Of a stretch of 64,000 nt of DNA, positions 14,281-62,172 are shown piece after piece. This DNA comes from Callorhinchus milii. Taxonomy: Eukaryota. The stretch is from positions 82,586,001 to 82,650,000 of the forward strand of contig NW_024704742.1 of NCBI RefSeq assembly GCF_018977255.1, given 5' to 3'. Numbering within the stretch: position 1 is the first letter of the stretch; each line of letters opens with the position of its first letter. The position numbers and the translations under genes are program-made. The notes under the pieces are model-generated. The model was not told where the DNA came from. It worked only from the letters and a program-made list of their open reading frames with translations, and searched no databases.

Positions 14281-14655
14281 ACATCAATTCCTTAGACTCT
14301 TGGAAGACAATTGAGTAAACAAATACACATTTAAGCTTTTCATTTATAATCTCTTTAGGTCAGAGCATATTCTTCAAGTTCTTTGTGTTATTTCAGCTGT
14401 AGTGAAACCTTATCTTTGGGTGAGAGGTTTCCATGGATAAAAATACATAAAATGGTTTGTAATGTTTTTCTCCTACGACCTTGTTTCACCCAAACTTTAT
14501 TTAAAGGAATCTTCATCAAACTGGTTTGTTGGTAAATATCACAGAATAATGTTGAATTTCAGATGTAAAGGTTGCATAAATCTAAACATTCATGACCAAA
14601 GCTCCTGTACTGGCCACAGAATAAATTTGTTTTGACAGTCAAGTCCATCCATTTC

Positions 14656-15100
14656 AACAACAACAACAACAACAACAAAATTTCATTTATAGAGTGCCTT
14701 TCACGTTGGGAGGACGTCTCAAGGCGCTGGACAGTTGGGTCGGGACCCGAGCAGGGGGGAAATGGTCAGGGTAAGGGGAGGGAAGGGAGGGAGCGAGGAG
14801 GGGGTAGAGAGTCGAGTGGGGAGCTGAAGGCTCGGTCAAAGAGAAAGGTCTTGAGACTGGCATTGAAGGAGGAAAGGGAGGAGGCGGCGAAGGCACTGGG
14901 GGATGGAGTTCCAGAGCCTAGGGGCTGAGAGGCTGAAGGCCCGGCCACCGATGGTAGGGCGGTTGGGGCGGGGGATGTGGAGCAGACCGGAGCCAGAGGA
15001 ACGGAGGGTACGGGCAGGTAAGTAGGGGGATAGTAGGTCGGAGAGGTAGGAGGGAGCAAGGCCGTGAATGGCCTTGTAGGTGAGGATGAGGATCCTGAAT
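14656..15100 (-). mobile_element. Young L2 3' fragment, very similar to the intact element
   Basis: Minus translation [36 protein letters not shown] is nearly identical to the ORF C-terminus; (CAA)n tail. Confidence 0.95.
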
Positions 15101-15274
15101 TCGTCTCTGGTTTAGAGTTTATTCTATGTGATGATCTTTGTGCCTGGGCGTTTCTTTTAATATTTGCTTTACGACAGCAGCAGAAACTGATCTGGCTGAA
15201 ATTCCACAATTAAAATAACAATATATAATCCTTACATGAACTCACACAGTGTAAATTGGCACTCCAATGCAGTT

Positions 15275-26289: not shown

Positions 26290-27395
26290 GGGATGGGCTA
26301 TGAGAAACGATTGGATAAGCTGGGTCCTCTTCAGCCATGAAAAGAAATGTCTCAGAGGGAACCTTACAGTGGTATATAAAATTTTAAATGGGATTGTAAA
26401 AGTAAAACTAAAAGAATGCTTTCGGATGCGCCAAGGCAGTAGAACAAGATGTCTATGTTTTTCGCACACAAAAAAATATACAGTCAATCCACTTTACAGT
26501 ATATTCTGTAAAGTGCTTTGAGATGTCTTAAAGATGTGATAAAGCACTATATCAAGTGCAAGGTTTATCATTATTATTGTCTCACAGAATTTGAATTGTA
26601 AAGGGCAATTATAGGACACACTTCAGGAAATGTTATGTTGTTATGTCGGCTGGGAATTTGGACTCATTGAACAAGCAGTTTGTTGGGATGTGATGGGAGG
26701 ATGGGAGATGAGTATTCTGGAAGGAGGAGATCAGATGGGCCAAAGGGCCTTCTTTATCTGAATCTTACAGAACTTTTAGATGTATTGAATATGCTAAACG
26801 GGATTGAGAAAGTGAATCCATCACAATACTGTCAGACGTGCCAAGGCAGCAGCACAGAGGAATACACAGGAAGTATTTCTTTACCCTTTTCTTTTCGTGG
26901 AGTCCTGTAGCTCAGTGGTTAGAGCACTCGCTTTGCAAGTGAGAGACCTGAGTTCAATTCCAGGCAGGGAGAAACCTTGGGCAAGTTTCCTTACTCCACA
27001 CGCCTAATAATAATCCCTCCAAAAAACCAAAAACAATAATTAAATTGGTCATTTTCAATCTACGACTGTTTGTGGGACATTGCTGTGCGCAATTGGCTGC
27101 CGCGTTCGCCCACAAATATACAGTCAATTCACTTTACAGTGTGTTCTGTGAAGCGCTTTGGGACGTCCTCCTGACGTGAAAAGCGCTATATCAAATGCAA
27201 GGATTATTATTATTATTATTATTATTACCCAGAGGATAGTTAAAAACTGGAATGGGTTCTTAGAAAGAGAGGTTGAATGTTGAATGCTGGATTCATTTAA
27301 GGATCAGCTTGACGCATAATAGGCAGATGGAAGGATGGATAGTCTCTAAGGTTGAAATCAAAATGGCCTTCTTCATCCGAATCGCTCTTGTAATC
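26290..27395 (+). mobile_element. Two CR1 3' fragments, each interrupted by a SINE
   Basis: LRGNLTVVYKILNG (26300 ORF) and a second ...tgctaaacgggattgagaaagtgaa copy; SINE inserts at ~26461-26578 and 26897-27226. Confidence 0.7.
26897..27226 (+). mobile_element. Young full-length family A tRNA-derived SINE (short subfamily)
   Basis: gtggagtcctgtagctcagtggttagagcactcgctttgcaagtgagagacctgagttcaattccaggca head. Near-identical to 30845 and 33884, with an L2-like stem-loop, a long (TTA)n tail and a possible TSD ttaccc. Confidence 0.93.
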
Positions 27396-30174: not shown

Positions 30175-30844
30175 CAAAGATCTACCAGATGTTCATCTCA
30201 CATGAAAGGAACTGAGTAAGTATAAGTTGTGATTGCTGGTAGTGTGGGTGTTGCTGTTCATCTCTTTAAAGGGGAATGCTGAGCAATGGACCACAGCAAT
30301 TAGCATCTACATGGTTAGTCAGCAAGAGCCAGGCAATAATCTCACGCTTTACTTACATTCTTGTGTCACTGTGAACCCTTTCAGTCAAGTAGCTCTTCGA
30401 CAGGCCTAGAATTTGAACTAAATCGTAGTACCAGGAGCAGCAGATCTTGTCATCTTATAATTAAACTGGAGTATCAGTCTGGTTGATTGTATCTGGTTTG
30501 CTTTGTCAGGTTATTGGAATGTGTAATGGAATGAAGTCCAGTGTCCTTGTTAGAGTCTGTAAAGTCAATGGCGGAGTGTACAACATTAAGTCAATTCCAA
30601 TTGACATGTGTGGTTTCTTTGCTTGCAGTAATGCAGTGGGTCTACGTATAAATGGTATTGCAGGCAGGCAAAGAGTCTTTAACAAGTTGCAGAAGCAAAC
30701 TATGCATTGATATAACGAGGAGTGTGCTGCTGCTCATCATACCTCTGATTTCATGTGTGCCTCTCATTCATAAACTTCATTTCAAATGAACAAACTAACA
30801 TTTCATCTCAAAATCACATCGCGCCCACTGGAGAAGGAGTTTGC

Positions 30845-31180
30845 GTGGAGTCCTGTAGCGCAGTGGTTAGAGCACTCGCTTTGCAAGCGAGAGACCTGAG
30901 TTCAATTCCAGGCAGGGCGAAACCTTGGGCAAGTTTCCTTACTCCACACACCTAATAATAATAATCCCTCCAAAACCAAAACCAATAATAAATTGGTCAT
31001 TTTCAATCTACGACTGTTTGTGGGACATTGCTGTGCACAATTGGCTGCCGTGTTCACCCACAAATATACAGTCAATTCACTTTACAGTGTGTTCTGTGAA
31101 GCGCTTTTGGACGTCCTCCCGACGTGAAAAGATCTATATCAAATGCAAGGATTATTCTTATTATTATTTTTATTATTTTG
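30845..31180 (+). mobile_element. Young full-length family A SINE
   Basis: Near-identical to 26897-27226. Confidence 0.93.
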
Positions 31181-33883: not shown

Positions 33884-34165
33884 TTTCAATTCCAGGCAAT
33901 TTCAATTCCAGGCAGGGCGAAACCTTGGGCAAGTTTACTTACTCCACACGCCAAATAATAATCCCTCAAAAAAACAAAAACAATAATAAAATTGGTCATT
34001 TTCAATCTACGACTGTTTGTGGGACATTGCTGTGCGCAATTGGCTGCTGCGTTCGCCCACAAATATACAGTCAATTCACTTTACAGTGTATTCTGTGAAG
34101 CGCTTTGGGACGTCCTCCTGACGTGAAAAGCGCTATATCAAATTCAAGGATTATTATTATTATTA
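33884..34165 (+). mobile_element. Young family A SINE, 5'-truncated
   Basis: Starts in the B-box region with a tandem tttcaattccaggca x2; otherwise near-identical to 26897. Confidence 0.92.
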
Positions 34166-35847
34166 TGTTAAGCCAGTGGAAGTAGATATTGCTCAGTGAT
34201 CGTTCATTTATTATTTCTATAAAAGCAAACCTCTGTTTTTTTAATTACAGAAATTCTCCACAAGAAATTCTTTTAAAAAACAATAAGATAATCATAATGG
34301 TAAATTGGAAAAGCAAGGTTCTGGTGAAAGAAAAATGGAGGGCTTCACTCTTAATAACAAGATGGAGTCCCAGGGATTCCTAAAATTGAACAGTTATAGT
34401 GAGCCTTGCAAGCCAATTTCAGCAGCAATTAGATAAATTCCAAGTTGGAGTGAAATACAGAATTTGAGTGATGGCCTCCACTGGAGCTCTTCAAAGTGAA
34501 GAATTGACTTGTGGGAAGGGAAGAAGGGAATGGTTGAATATGACCACTGGTATGTGCCCAGGATCTTAATATGTCTTTATGTACGACTGTTTTGGACAAT
34601 GCTGTGCGTAATTGGCTACCGCGTTTCACCCACAAAATATACAGTCGACTTATTTTACAGTATGTTCTGTGAAGTGCTTTGAGATGTCTCGAAGATGGGC
34701 TAAGGCACTACCAAATGCACAGATTATTATTATCAATGAGCTGCTAGTTCTCACAAATTGATTTTTTGGGGGGATTATTCTCTCAGGATAACAGCTGCTG
34801 CCGTACATCTTGCTCCGTTAAATAACTCCAACTCTTTTGTCCCCCAAATTGTCTTATGCAAATTGCTAATAATAACCAAGAGGCAAAGGAATGTTTCTAA
34901 CAAAATGTTTCTGTTACTGGAGCTGAAACACCAATTAAGCATATTCAGAGAAGTAATGATGTGGACAATGATTGTATTTCATGAATGGCTGAAGTTGCTA
35001 AGCACACACTATTTTTAATATGTCTTGCCTCCCTCCTGAATAACCAAATGTACCGAGCAGAAGAGTCCAGACGGGGGACTGGGCAAGACACTGTCTCTCA
35101 AGTGGCCACTGTGTCTAATGTAGGACAGACATCTCAGAGCACTCAAGGTCAAGTATAGTGACTTTTGTAGACAAATGTGGCAGCCATTTGCGCACAGCCT
35201 TGTCCCACAACTCAGGACTCAGGAAGCAAACAACCTTTTCTTTTCAAAGACTGTCTTAGGATCTTTTACATTGACTTGAACAGATAGACAGGACCTTGAT
35301 TTAATGCAGTTCCAGAGAATTAGCCGTGATACATCCAGGGTCTGTATTTAGAAATCCTTTTGGAAATCCCATTACCATGTTCTTGTGCAAAGGTTTCTTG
35401 TAACATAGAATACATTTGGAATATTAACTTGAGCATTGAGGAAAAATGTCTAAAGCTAAAATCGAGATTGTTCTCCTGAGCTCAAGGGGGTATGTACAGG
35501 CTTCGGAGAGGAGACTTGCTGGTTCTCTGATGCAGTTCTGGTGGACATTAAATATCCTTTTTCTTGATCGAAAGCAAAAAGCAGGCACTTTGTGGATGTG
35601 TCAGATTCCAAATACTGCATCCACAATCCAGTGCAAGTGCAGACAAGAGCAGAATGTTAGAAGGTCGTCACCAATGAACAGATGTTTATTGTCAAACCAC
35701 CACTCTCTAGCACTCATAAACCTGGACTTTAGCCATGCTATATTGTTAAATACCATGAAGGAAGAATGCTGCAACATCGAGCAGCTGGGAAGTCAAATCT
35801 GCAAATAATGATTTAACTCCAGGTCAGAAAGTAATCTTTATAGTGGG

Positions 35848-49115: not shown

Positions 49116-49929
49116 AGGGTGGAAGAAGGTAGTGCAGGTTATGTAGTTTATATGGATTTTCAAAAGGCGTTTGATAAAGTGCCACATAAGAGACTTGTAA
49201 GCAAAATAGAAGCCCCTGGTATTAAAGGGACAGTGGCAGCATAGATACAGAACTGGCTGGGAGACAGAAAGCAGAGTGGTGGTGAAGGGTTGTTTTTCTG
49301 ACTCGAGGGAAGTGTGCAGTGGTGTCCCCCAGGGATCAGTATTGGGACCACTGCTGTTTTTGATCTATATCAATGACCTGGACTTGGGTATAGGGAGTAC
49401 ACTTTCCAAGTTTGCAGATGATACTAAGCTGCGAAAAGTAGTAAACAGTGAGGAGCATAGTAAATGGACACAGACAGACTGGTAAAATGGGCCGACACGT
49501 GGCAGATGAAGTTTAATGTGGAGAAATGCGAAGTGATGCATTTTGGGAGGAAGAATGAGGAGAGACAATATACGGAGATGGTACAATCTTAAAGGGGTGA
49601 AGGAACAGAGAGACCTGGGGGTCATATAAGTAAATCTTTGAGGGTGGCAGGACAGGGAGATAAAGCTGTTAAAAAAGCATACAGTATACTAGGCTTTATA
49701 AATAGGGAATGGAATACAAAAGTCAGAAAGTTATAATGAACCTTTATAAAACACTGGTTAAACCTCAGCGAGAGTACCGTGTTCAGTTCTGGGCACTGCA
49801 TTTAGGAAAGATGTCAATGCATTGGAGAGGGTGCAAAGGAGATTTACCATGATGGTACCAGAAATGAGCATCTTCAGTTATTAGGACAGGCTAGAGAAAC
49901 TAGGATTATTCTCCTTGGAGCAGAGAAGG
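49116..49929 (+). mobile_element. CR1 LINE, 5'-truncated and decayed; part upstream of the L2 insertion
   Basis: [34 protein letters not shown] and KFADDTK motifs, split by stops and frameshifts (ORFs 48912-49244, 49276-49485). Confidence 0.93.
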
Positions 49930-52900
49930 ACGTCATAGATTAGTTTTCAGGTGAGTGCGCGCGCACAAAAAAAAAAAAAAAAAAAAAAACCTCTGCGCCC
50001 CCCCCCCCCAGGGCTCACATCAGAGCCCACTATGGTCCTGTTGGGTTCGATGCCCCAATCTGCGGGATAATGCCATCCACCTGACCGCTCGCTCCCGGTC
50101 CCCGCGTGCGCACTATGGCTGCCGCTTTGACCCGAGCCCCCTCACCCCCTCCCTCCCTCCCCCCTCCTCTCTCCCCCCAAACCCTCCCCCCTCTCCATCT
50201 CTCCCGCTCTCTCCTCCTCTCTCTCCGTCCCTCTCGTCTTCTATCCCCACTTGACCCTCCCACAACCTCCCTCTGTTCCAGTCTGGGAATCCTCCGCCGG
50301 GCTCACCGCGGCACTCGGCGTTGGCTGTCCAGCAGCAGCCACACCGACTGCCCCATTCCCCACCACACTCGCCACCCACCCCGGACACAGACCCGGGGAG
50401 TCAACCTCTCCTCCCTCATCCCCATTCCCCCCACCCCTGCCTCACAACCTGGACCCCCCTCCCCTCCCACACACCCTTCTGTCAACCGCTCCCTCCACAT
50501 CGGACTGCAAAATGTCCGCTCCCTCTGCAACAAGGCCCTGGTCATCAACGATCTCATCCTTGATGAGAACGTTGATATCATGGCCTTGACAGAAACGTGG
50601 CTCACCCCAGGCGACACCTTCCCCCTCACGGAGGCCACGCCACCCGGCTACACCTCCCACCACATCCCCCGCCCCAACCGCCGTGGCGGTGGTGTTGCCC
50701 TTATCTCAAGGACACCACTTGCCCTATCCCCCTACTCCTCTGGCTCTTTCCCCTCCTTCGAGCACCTCACCCTCTCCCACCCCTCATTCCTCTCCCTTAA
50801 AATCCTCCTCCTCTACCGGCCCCCTAAAACCTCTCCCACCTTCATCTCTGACATTTCAACACTCCTCACATCTCTTTGCCTCTCCTCTGATCGCCTCATC
50901 ATCCTGGGCGACTTTAACCTACACTTCACCCCCTCCTGCTCCATCTCCACAGACTTCTCTTCCCTGCTCTCCTCACTCAACCTTTCCCTACACATAAACT
51001 CCCCCACTCACAGTCACGGCCACCCACTCGATTTGGTGATCACCCGGGGCCTCAGTGTCTCGGATGTCACTATTACCGACAAGGCCATCTCCGACCACTA
51101 CTTCATCTCCTTCACCACCTCCACCCCCCTCCCCACCTCCACCAGACCCACCACCATCTTCTACCGCCCTTGGAAGAAGTTACCCCCACAATCCCTAACC
51201 GATGCCTTGGAGTCCTCTGAACTCCTCTCCCTCTGGCCTTCAACCCTCACCGACCCCTCTTCTCCTCTCTCCCTCCTCCACAATATCCTCTCCTCCACAC
51301 TCGATACTCTTGCCCCCATCACTTCCCGCACTGTCTCCTACTCCCGCTCCTCCCCCTGGTACACCACCCACCTCCGCTCACTGAAATGCCAGGTGCGGGC
51401 TGCTGAGCGCACCTTTGTCAAATCCGGCTTAACGGTCCACCGACAAATCTGGCTGGACCTCCTCAAAATTTACCGCTCCACTCTAGCCTCGGCCAAGTCG
51501 TCCTTCTACTCCAGGATAATCCTGGAGGCGAAGAACAACCCCAGGCTACTGTTTTCCACCACATCCCGACTCCTCCGTCCCCCCCGCCACCCCGCGCAGG
51601 TCATCTCCTCCAACCTTCACTGCGAGGAGATGCTGGATTTCCTTGAATCCAAGATCAAGGGAATCCGCTCCGCGGTCACTTCCCCTCCAACTTCCACCCA
51701 CCACCCACCCCTTCCCTCCCACACTCCGACTCCTACCCATCCTCCCCTACACACCTTCGTACCCGTTTCCCCACCCTCTGTCACTGAACTCATCCTATCC
51801 CTAAAACCAACCACCTGCTCCCTTGACCCCATCCCCACTCCACTCCTTATCTCCCAGCTCCATTTTCTTGCCCCACACATCACTGACATCATAAACCTGT
51901 CCCTCTCCTCTGGCTCTGTCCCCATTCCATTAAAAACTGCCATCATCACGCCCACCCTGAAAAAACCCTCCCTTGATGCGTCGCAGCTATCAAGCTACCG
52001 GCCCATCTCCAACCTCCCCTTTCTCTCCAAGGTCTTGGAAAGAGTTGTCGCCTCCCAACTGCGCTCTTTCCTCTCCACCCATTCTCTTTTTGAACCCCTT
52101 CAGTCAGGTTTCCGTGCTGCTCATAGCACAGAAACTGCCCTGGTCAAGGTCACCAATGATATCCTGACTATCTGTGACCAGGGCTCCCTCTGTCTCCTCG
52201 TCCTCCTCGACCTATCGGCAGCATTCGATACGGTCGACCACGCTATCCTACTCCACCGCTTGTCCTCCCACCTCAACCTTCAAGGCACTGTCCTTGAATG
52301 GTTTAGCTCTTACCTTTCCCACCGTCTTCACTTCGTCTCAACGAATGGCTTCTCCTCCACCCCCCGTACTGTCTCATGTGGTGTCCCTCAGGGCTCTGTC
52401 CTCGGTCCCCTCCTCTTCACCCTCTATATGCTCCCCCTCGGTGACATCATCCGCAAACATGGGGTTAACTTCCACATGTATGCGGATGACACCCAACTCT
52501 ACCTTTCCTCCTCTACTCTCAACTCCACGACCACCGATGTCCTGACAGCCTGCCTGTCCGACATCGAGTCCTGGACGAGAGACAACTTTCTTCAGCTCAA
52601 CGTGCGAAAAACCGAGGCCCTCCTGATTGGCTCACGTCAGCGCCTCCGCACCTCAGGCGCTGACACCATCAGCATCCAAGGCTGCACTCTCCACCTCTCA
52701 AAGCCAGTCAGGAACCTCGGCGTTTTGTTCGACCCTGAGCTGTCCTTTCTCCCTCACATCCGCACCACAACTGGCACCGCCTTCCATCACCTCCGGAATA
52801 TCGCCAGATTACGGCACTACCTCACCCCTCACGCTGCTGAAACCCTGGTTCACGCCTTTGTCACCTCAAGGCTGGACTATGGGAACTCTCTCCTCGCCGG

Positions 52901-53533
52901 CCTTCCCGCCACCTCCCTCCACAAGCTGCAGGTCATTCAGAACTCTGCAGCTCGTGTACTGTCCCGCACCAGGCTTCGGGACCACATCACTCCTACCCTC
53001 GCTCGCCTCCACTGGCTCCCCATCCCCCAGAGGATTGATTTCAAGATCCTCATCCTCACCTACAAGGCCATTCACGGCCTTGCTCCCTCCTACCTCTCCA
53101 ACCTACTATCCCCCTACCTACCTGCCCGTACCCTCCGTTCCTCTGGCTCCGGTCTGCTCCACGTCCCCCGCCCCAACCGCCCTACTATCGGTGGTCGGGC
53201 CTTCAGCCTCTCAGCCCCCAGGCTCTGGAACTCCATCCCCCAGTGCCTTCGCCTTGCTTCCTCCCTTTCCTCCTTCAAGGCCGGTCTCAAAACCTTTCTC
53301 TTTGACCGTGCCTTCAGCTCCCCTCTCGACTCTCTTCCTCCTCCTCGCTCCCTCCCTTCCCTCCCCTCACCCTGACCATTTCCCCCCTCCTCTCTCCCTC
53401 CCTTCCCTCCCCTCACCCTGACCATTTCCCCCCTGCTCGGGTCATGACCCAACTGTGCAGCGCCTTGGGACGTCCTCCTGACGTGAAAGGCGCTCTATAA
53501 ATGGAATCTTGTTGTTGTTGTTGTTGTTGTTGT
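49930..53533 (+). mobile_element. Young ~3.6 kb L2 LINE, possibly full length
   Basis: Interrupts a CR1 at ...cagagaagg|ttaagaggagacc... It has a 185-nt leader, the intact ORF, a 3' stem-loop (gcgcctt...aaggcgc, 53460-53493) and a (TTG)n tail. Confidence 0.95.
50115..53375 (+). CDS. L2-clade LINE polyprotein: apurinic-type endonuclease plus reverse transcriptase (intact ORF, 1086 aa from first ATG)
   Basis: Uninterrupted ORF (track 50106-53375 starts at GTG; first ATG at 50115). APE motifs: [45 protein letters not shown] motifs: [46 protein letters not shown]2-typical C-terminus: [30 protein letters not shown]. Confidence 0.97.
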
Positions 53534-53931
53534 TAAGAGGAGACCTAATAGAAGTTTTCAAAATGATGAGGGGATTCAACAGGGTGAAAAAGGAGAAACT
53601 ATTTCCACTGGCGGGTGGGTCGGTAACCCGAGGACACTGATTTAAAATAGTTGCAAAAAGAAACAGGGGAGTGAGAAGAATTTTTTTCACACAGCGAGTT
53701 GTTCGGATCTGGAATGCATTGCCTGAAAGGGTGGTGGAAACCGATTTGTTAACAACTTTTAAAGGAGAAGTAGATAATTATTTGAGGAGGACAAGTTTGC
53801 AGGGCTATGGGGAGGCAGCAGGGGGAAATGGAATTGATTTGGAAGCTCTTTTCAAAGAACCAGCACAGACATGATGGGCTGAATGGCCTACTTTTCTGTG
53901 CTGTATAATTCTATGATTCTATGATTCTATG
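53533..53931 (+). mobile_element. CR1 LINE, 3' part downstream of the L2 insertion
   Basis: Continues the CR1 frame (RGDLIEVFK; FFTQRVVRIWNALP) and ends in the CR1-typical (ATTCTATG)n tail. Confidence 0.93.
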
Positions 53932-53973
53932 TGATAAGGCGCTATATCAAATGCAAGGATTACTATTATTATT
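53932..53973 (+). mobile_element. SINE tail, right part (split by the CR1)
   Basis: tgataaggcgctatatcaaatgcaaggattactattatt matches SINE tails elsewhere, e.g. 1407-1440. Confidence 0.85.
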
Positions 53974-61412: not shown

Positions 61413-62172
61413 ATAATAATGAACCTTGCATTTGACATAGCGCCTTATCACATTGTAGAGATAACCAAGTACTTCACAGGATTTTACTGTAAAGGGTAAT
61501 GACTGTATTTGTAGGTGTAGGTTCAGCCCCGAGGCTCTGGAACTCTATCCCCCAGTGCCTTCGCCTTGCTTCCTCCCTCTCCTCCTTCAAGGCCGGTCTC
61601 AAAACCTTTCTCTTTGACCGAGCCTTCAGCTCCCCTCTCGACTCTCTTCCCCCTTCTCACTCCCTCCCATCCCTCCCCTCACCCTGACCATTTCCCCCCT
61701 CCTCGACTCTCCCCTCCCCTGACCATTTCCCCCCTGCTCGGGTCATGACCCAACTGTGCAGCGCCTTGGGATGTCCTCCTGACGTGAAAGGCGCTTTATA
61801 AATGGAATCTTGTTATTGTTGTTGTTGTTGTATTTGTAGGTGAACGCAGAAGCCAATTTGAACAATGTCCCACAAACAGTCATGGATTGAGTGACCAATT
61901 TTATTTGGAGGATTGTTGGCCAGGACACTGGGAGAAACTCTCTTTGCTTATCAAATAGTGCTGTGAGATCTTTAACATCTATCTAAACAGGCAGACAAAA
62001 CCTTGGTTTAATGTCTTGTCCAAAGGACAGCACCTCCAAAAAAGCACTCCCCCAATGCAAGGTAATGGAGTGTCACTCTGGACTGTGAGTTCAAAGTCCC
62101 AACGTAGGGCTTGAACCCATGTCCTTCTGACTCAGAGATAAAAGTGCTATCAACTGAGCCGGGCTGACACCT
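61413..62172 (-). mobile_element. Full-length family B SINE split by a young L2 tail
   Basis: Tail at 61413-61517; body and head at 61829-62172 (ctgagccgggctgacacc). Confidence 0.88.
61523..61830 (+). mobile_element. Young L2 3' fragment with a 14-bp TSD
   Basis: [44 protein letters not shown] is identical to the intact ORF. TSD tgtatttgtaggtg at 61504-61517 and 61829-61842. Confidence 0.95.

Follow-up and report, generated by a model that had tools for sequence, protein, structure and literature searches.

The window, i.e. the whole 64-kb stretch of Callorhinchus milii DNA analysed here, carries on its plus strand an L2 LINE copy of 3,603 bases (49930-53532), inserted in an old and decayed element that we take to be a CR1 from its C-terminal motif and tail (Table 1). 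Excising exactly this interval brings back the reading frame of the surrounding CR1 copy, which none of three other tested boundaries does, and positions 53533-53534 can be read either as L2 tail or as target. A target-site duplication is absent at both junctions of the focal insertion, with merely 1-3 bases being ambiguous at the ends. Directly after the tail of the host CR1, a bare SINE tail is found (53929-53973).

Table 1. Features of the focal L2 copy, its insertion target and related repeats in the window
Feature	Position	Strand	Remarks
L2 LINE copy, 5'-clipped, family CalMil_L2-1	49930..53532	+	3,603 bases
5' UTR remnant	49930..50114	+	run of 23 A at 49967 and of 12 C at 49998; lacks head repeats and linker
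Two small upstream ORFs	50032..50084	+	
Single ORF	50115..53375	+	1,086 residues: leader, APE endonuclease, RT
Conserved leader block	50199..50321	+	aa 29-69; without a Pfam family; opening stretch similar to an eIF4E-binding motif, Leu replacing Tyr
APE-type endonuclease domain	50511..51098	+	aa 133-328 (Pfam)
Reverse transcriptase domain	51960..52721	+	aa 616-869 (Pfam); YADD at 52479
Tandem duplication of 46 bases	53340..53439	+	spans stop codon and 3' UTR
3' stem-loop	53459..53494	+	two stems, 5-base loop; common to SINE tails
(TTG)n terminal repeat	53509..53532	+	
Old decayed CR1 copy (presumed), left part	49116..49929	+	insertion target; left limit approximate
Old decayed CR1 copy (presumed), right part	53533..53925	+	includes its tail
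Young tRNA-Ala-headed SINE	26892..27227	+	upper stem and loop as in the L2 tail
Young tRNA-Ala-headed SINE	30840..31175	+	loop one base different
Young 5'-cut SINE	33901..34169	+	upper stem and loop as in the L2 tail
3' fragment, same L2 family	14655..15102	-	94% without gaps
3' fragment, same L2 family	61523..61831	+	95.5% without gaps

One frame is open from stop to stop at 50085-53375, and its ATG (50115) lies 185 nt from the insertion junction, as given in the preliminary description. The encoded 1,086 residues contain no stop or frameshift, and Pfam recognizes Exo_endo_phos (E 2e-15) and RVT_1 (E 2.5e-36) in the focal protein. All the catalytic motifs of endonuclease and RT are present, and of the 148 columns with a conservation of 90% or above among 60 relatives, 144 are retained, with M506, L510, N721 and I1041 as the four exceptions; the earlier account of a complete EN-RT ORF is thereby borne out. 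The closest full-length relatives among the best 120 of 408 matches are 45-48% identical to the focal protein. In a predicted model of aa 1-340, the endonuclease is well folded. A metagenome scan with aa 1-362 returned 599 pattern matches, none of them confirmed.

By the general rule on start contexts, the main ATG stands in a strong context, and that of a 12-codon upstream ORF starting at 50032 is as strong. The stop of this short ORF overlaps the ATG (50070) of a 4-codon ORF, which ends in frame 30 bases upstream of the main ATG. The published CalMil_L2-2 consensus retains the 4-codon ORF, with TTG where CalMil_L2-1 has the main ATG (PMC13343379).

Some candidates were rejected. In the 5' remnant, no ribozyme or known RNA was recognized, since the 3 Rfam matches at E <=10 are far under the cut-off and outside the remnant, and its fold has a z of -1.86. 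Two host gene matches from a scan of 300 of 371 frames were attributed to chance: SCAP_N at 741-938, with 22.2 bits against a cut-off of 27.9 and no PDB match, and a zinc finger below the cut-off.

Other L2 pieces are scattered along the window. The two local 3' fragments previously called near-identical are less similar than that, with 422 of 496 positions alike to the focal element in 14655-15102 (94.2% without gaps) and 295 of 320 in 61523-61831 (95.5% without gaps). Six more stretches, four long and two short, are older L2 pieces with 70-77% similarity. A direct repeat of ~14 bases flanks the fragment 61523-61831 (about 61504-61517 and 61829-61842), while the focal copy has none. The pyrimidine-rich 3' end is duplicated over 46 bases in the focal copy and over 35 bases at 61662-61740, and occurs without duplication in the 14.6 kb fragment (14757).

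Family membership and the missing 5' head

The focal copy combines APE endonuclease and RT within one ORF with a stem-loop at its 3' end and, after this, a short tandem repeat without poly(A). Its putative placement in the L2 clade comes from the match to a consensus that its authors class as L2, namely CalMil_L2-1 of Callorhinchus milii, with 3,882 bases (Stuart et al. 2026, PMC13343379, Supplementary Table 2). In a comparison that covers the first 400 letters of this consensus and its total length, a hand count gives one partial unit of 61 bases, two units of 88 bases and a G-rich linker of 45 bases, after which the consensus is identical by eye to window 49930-50041 (112 bases), except that the A and C runs differ in length. 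Subtracting this head of ~282 bases leaves ~3,600, which fits the length of the focal copy and leaves no room for an ORF1. The two sequences are thus alike in the 5' 112 bases, in fitting length and in the single ORF, and differ by the ~280 further 5' bases of the consensus (88-base repeats and linker), the focal copy beginning ~45 bases past the end of the final 88-base repeat. The term intact, as first applied to the element, therefore holds for the ORF but not for the 5' end. Allowing up to 3 mismatches, a 16-base motif of the 88-base unit has no match in the window. The cut at 49930 falls 7 bases past the last G-run of the linker, where reverse transcription may stall.

According to Stuart et al. 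(PMC13343379), the L2s of Chondrichthyes lack ORF1 and certain ORF1-less elements carry 5' repeats. The same source gives an intact ORF in 141 of 326 near-full-length copies of CalMil_L2-1 (Supplementary Table 3) and assigns 12.7% of the genome to L2 (Table S4), and there intact L2 frames are common in teleost families too, judged from 30 of the 141 rows. At the family level, this supports the earlier proposal of a single-ORF L2 of the UnaL2/ZfL2-2 kind, i.e. one without an upstream ORF1. ZfL2-2 and UnaL2 share with the focal family one EN-RT ORF and a 3' two-stem hairpin with a short terminal repeat (PMC4176376, PMC1636434, PMC3880073), and ZfL2-2 has 5' repeat units as CalMil_L2-1 does (PMC4176376). 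On the other hand, the loop is CTCCT in the focal element and GGAUA in UnaL2, the terminal repeat is (TTG)n instead of UGUAA, and activity has been demonstrated for both of these elements, whereas the focal one is known here from its sequence.

In the consensus, a TATA-like word lies ~30 bases ahead of the next 88-base unit. This is the spacing expected of such a word in a promoter, and it suggests that the head repeats likely carry the promoter. Lacking them, the focal copy is probably a passive one, with likely no transcription of its own; its predicted protein may be functional if driven by another promoter. The candidacy as an autonomous element put forward before is sustained by the open frame with its catalytic motifs and by the intact tail, but becomes doubtful with a 5' end that is incomplete and devoid of head repeats. 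We conclude, with a probability of roughly 0.85, that the focal element is a 5'-clipped young copy of the published single-ORF family CalMil_L2-1, and probably a passive product rather than a source element.

Age of the insertion and alternative readings

Contigs from four sequencing runs were matched to the window at 90% likeness. The five listed records of run X7 lying on the element (27-31) have 19 differences in 2,385 bases, or 0.8% from the family majority, which supports the recent origin proposed at the outset and corresponds to at most ~7-8 or ~50 million years under two rates from PMC5499810. Run X18, labelled as another organism, has 57 differences in 2,236 bases (~2.5%) over window 50064-53080, being either a relative or a mixed sample. 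In run X1, the summed contig depth is 8.6-9.5 in two unique bins against 7,412 in bin 49930-50109, with values of up to 1.6 million towards the 3' end of the element; although depth is no copy number, the 5' remnant is plainly repeated, and the family is large with the usual 3' excess. The observed/expected CpG ratio is 0.65 in the element, higher than in four older L2 pieces (0.37-0.58) and elsewhere in the window (0.30-0.32). As to an insertion polymorphism, none of the 15 joints considered out of 736 is at the focal site, and contigs show presence, not absence.

The state of the frame says less about age. In a simulation of substitutions only, with no indels, 57% of such frames acquire no stop under 0.8% random substitution, and the open frame is therefore a weak proof of recency. 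From the 40 best-supported of 272 rows, a choice biased towards shared variants, 24 frame differences were listed, 17 of them silent against 27% expected (p 1e-5). Many of these differences are thus inherited subfamily variants and not damage. The silent excess reflects selection on the source copies of the family, and says little about the private damage of the focal copy.

The preliminary description left room for a two-ORF element truncated just before ORF2. The focal copy is truly 5'-cut, and the overlapping stop-start at 50068-50072 could, speculatively, be the relic of an ORF junction. However, the published consensus goes on into repeats and not into a frame, and PMC13343379 describes the L2s of Chondrichthyes as having no ORF1. 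The spare contig bases point the same way, with a median of 601 for 35 proteins with leaders of at least 85 residues and 1,266 for 36 with shorter ones (p 1.6e-5), the contigs being possibly incomplete. A two-ORF family is then highly improbable and largely refuted. We also find it unlikely that the focal copy is an active source, using either an internal promoter in the retained 185 bases or read-through of a host transcript. Such a promoter might lie within those bases, which are rich in CpG (observed/expected 0.95) and can fold back onto the start codon (z -1.86, weak); frame and tail are intact, and the main ATG has a strong context. Against this, the head repeats are missing, an equally strong start opens the 12-codon ORF ahead of the main one, and no host exon was found in the 300 of 371 unmasked frames of at least 42 residues that were scanned, where the two matches are below the cut-off.

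A further reading, compatible with that of a clipped passive copy, is a fixed insertion some millions of years old whose protein is dead by missense despite the open frame. We regard it as a real but minor possibility. It agrees with the little that an open frame says about activity, with the change of four highly conserved columns and with the upper bound on age given above. The prevalence of silent differences speaks against it, and M506 and L510 lie within X7 record 29, where 656 bases hold just 5 differences, and both may therefore be shared by the whole family. As a 5'-clipped copy of CalMil_L2-1, the element could serve as template in an assay of chondrichthyan L2s, although a hundred others would do as well; it is less complete than other copies of the family and has little significance as found.

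The 3' tail and the SINEs

In 18 hand-picked local L2 and SINE tails, 91.9% of the cells of the shared fold are paired and 14 cells are changed on both sides (1 of 500 shuffles), a statistic inflated by relatedness, with the structure derived from the same sequences. The focal tail takes this fold of two stems and a 5-base loop. Its upper stem and loop are identical in two of the three youngest SINEs and one base off in the third, while older SINEs carry other loops. The heads of the youngest SINEs score as tRNA-Ala.

These tails agree with the published partnership of CmiSINEs and SacSINE1-CM with L2-2_CM, with SINE peaks dated at 105-226 million years ago (Luchetti et al. 2017, PMC5499810), and with the finding that recognition depends on the loop in UnaL2 (PMC1636434). 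The published SINEs are like the local ones in their tRNA-Ala head and L2-like tail, and the tail stem-loop is common to the focal L2. They differ in that SINE tails end in (ATT)n and the focal L2 tail in (TTG)n, and the exact L2 loop is confined to the youngest local SINEs, whereas the published peaks are as old as stated. L2-2_CM (Repbase) may correspond to CalMil_L2-1. The family is plausibly the partner of the youngest SINEs and not of all local ones. The suggestion that this element is the likely mobiliser of the local SINEs is thereby narrowed to the family, since nothing marks the focal copy among at least 141 copies with intact ORFs. The L2 family has already been published, as have the absence of ORF1 from it, the abundance of intact copies and the SINE partnership.

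By analogy with UnaL2 and ZfL2-2, a source copy would have been transcribed from its head repeats, and its single protein would have attached to the stem-loop at the 3' end of the RNA encoding it. The protein would then have nicked the old CR1 copy and used two or three matching bases for priming at the (TTG)n tail, copying 3.6 kb before an arrest just short of the G-rich linker, which could form a quadruplex, a speculative step. The same family protein may also copy SINEs bearing the same stem-loop.

The leader block of the ORF1-less protein

The 130 residues ahead of the endonuclease contain a block that can be aligned with the leaders of relatives. No Pfam family matches this leader, and the ESM Atlas returned only unnamed clusters below 0.9. 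With a profile of 30 relatives' leaders (38 relatives with leaders of at least 70 residues, less 8 with a 2A-like NPGP word), the focal leader scores 26.1 bits against at most 9.3 among 1,000 shuffles. The eight relatives set aside are P0038, P0044, P0081, P0084, P0108, P0110, P0117 and P0119; 2A sequences are known in APE retrotransposons (PMC3708506). A profile of leader sequences finds 199 proteins among 1.84 billion, and 83 of the 149 new ones match the EN-RT body (55 of 70 among those with room for it), which identifies the block as a leader module of retrotransposons.

The first part of the block fits the eIF4E-binding consensus of eIF4G and 4E-BP, YX(R/K)X2L-phi-X2(R/K/Q) (PMC8558276), a likeness noted ahead of testing. 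In 51 leaders of at least 60 residues, taken from 109 of 120 mapped proteins, the core of the motif occurs in 20, its R/K form in 15 and the full form in 5, against shuffle means of 3.7, 0.55 and 0.09, with body stretches lower still. Fifteen leader cores, of which 14 were picked by eye because they show the motif, were combined into a profile that gives 4 PDB matches at E <=10. The best two are to the peptide of fly eIF4G that binds eIF4E, and both are non-significant (E 0.065 and 0.11). These two are also the sole matches to the leader block from a 74-sequence profile derived from the former, likewise non-significant (E 0.10 and 0.12). In the model of aa 1-340, the leader is predicted to be extended and to contain helices at 31-36 and 48-56 (pLDDT about 70-80).

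The relatives' leaders thus match the eIF4G/4E-BP motif (PMC8558276) far above shuffles, and its short helix with a second helix ~15 residues on is predicted here too. The canonical Tyr of the motif, however, is replaced in the focal protein by Leu at aa 29, where X7 record 27 has no difference, and the focal family has this variant. CYFIP1 is an eIF4E binder with Leu at that position (PMC8558276). Any amphipathic helix start can resemble the motif. Our literature search, with subscription journals mostly outside its coverage, found no report of an eIF4E motif in the proteins of LINEs and no description on point of the leader block. Kajikawa et al. 2005 reportedly named an N-terminal conserved region in UnaL2, and the block itself may already be in print there.

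We offer as a doubtful proposal that the N-terminal module of ORF1-less L2-type proteins would open with a helix that binds eIF4E in the manner of eIF4G, and continue with a second helix and an RG.R patch. The nascent protein would seize the cap-bound eIF4E of its own transcript, shut off its translation and turn it into the retrotransposition particle, thereby taking the role of ORF1 in other LINEs, with the elephant-shark family using a Leu variant. If true, a cap-complex-binding motif in an RT protein would bear on the means by which LINEs devoid of ORF1 get hold of their own RNA and exit from translation.
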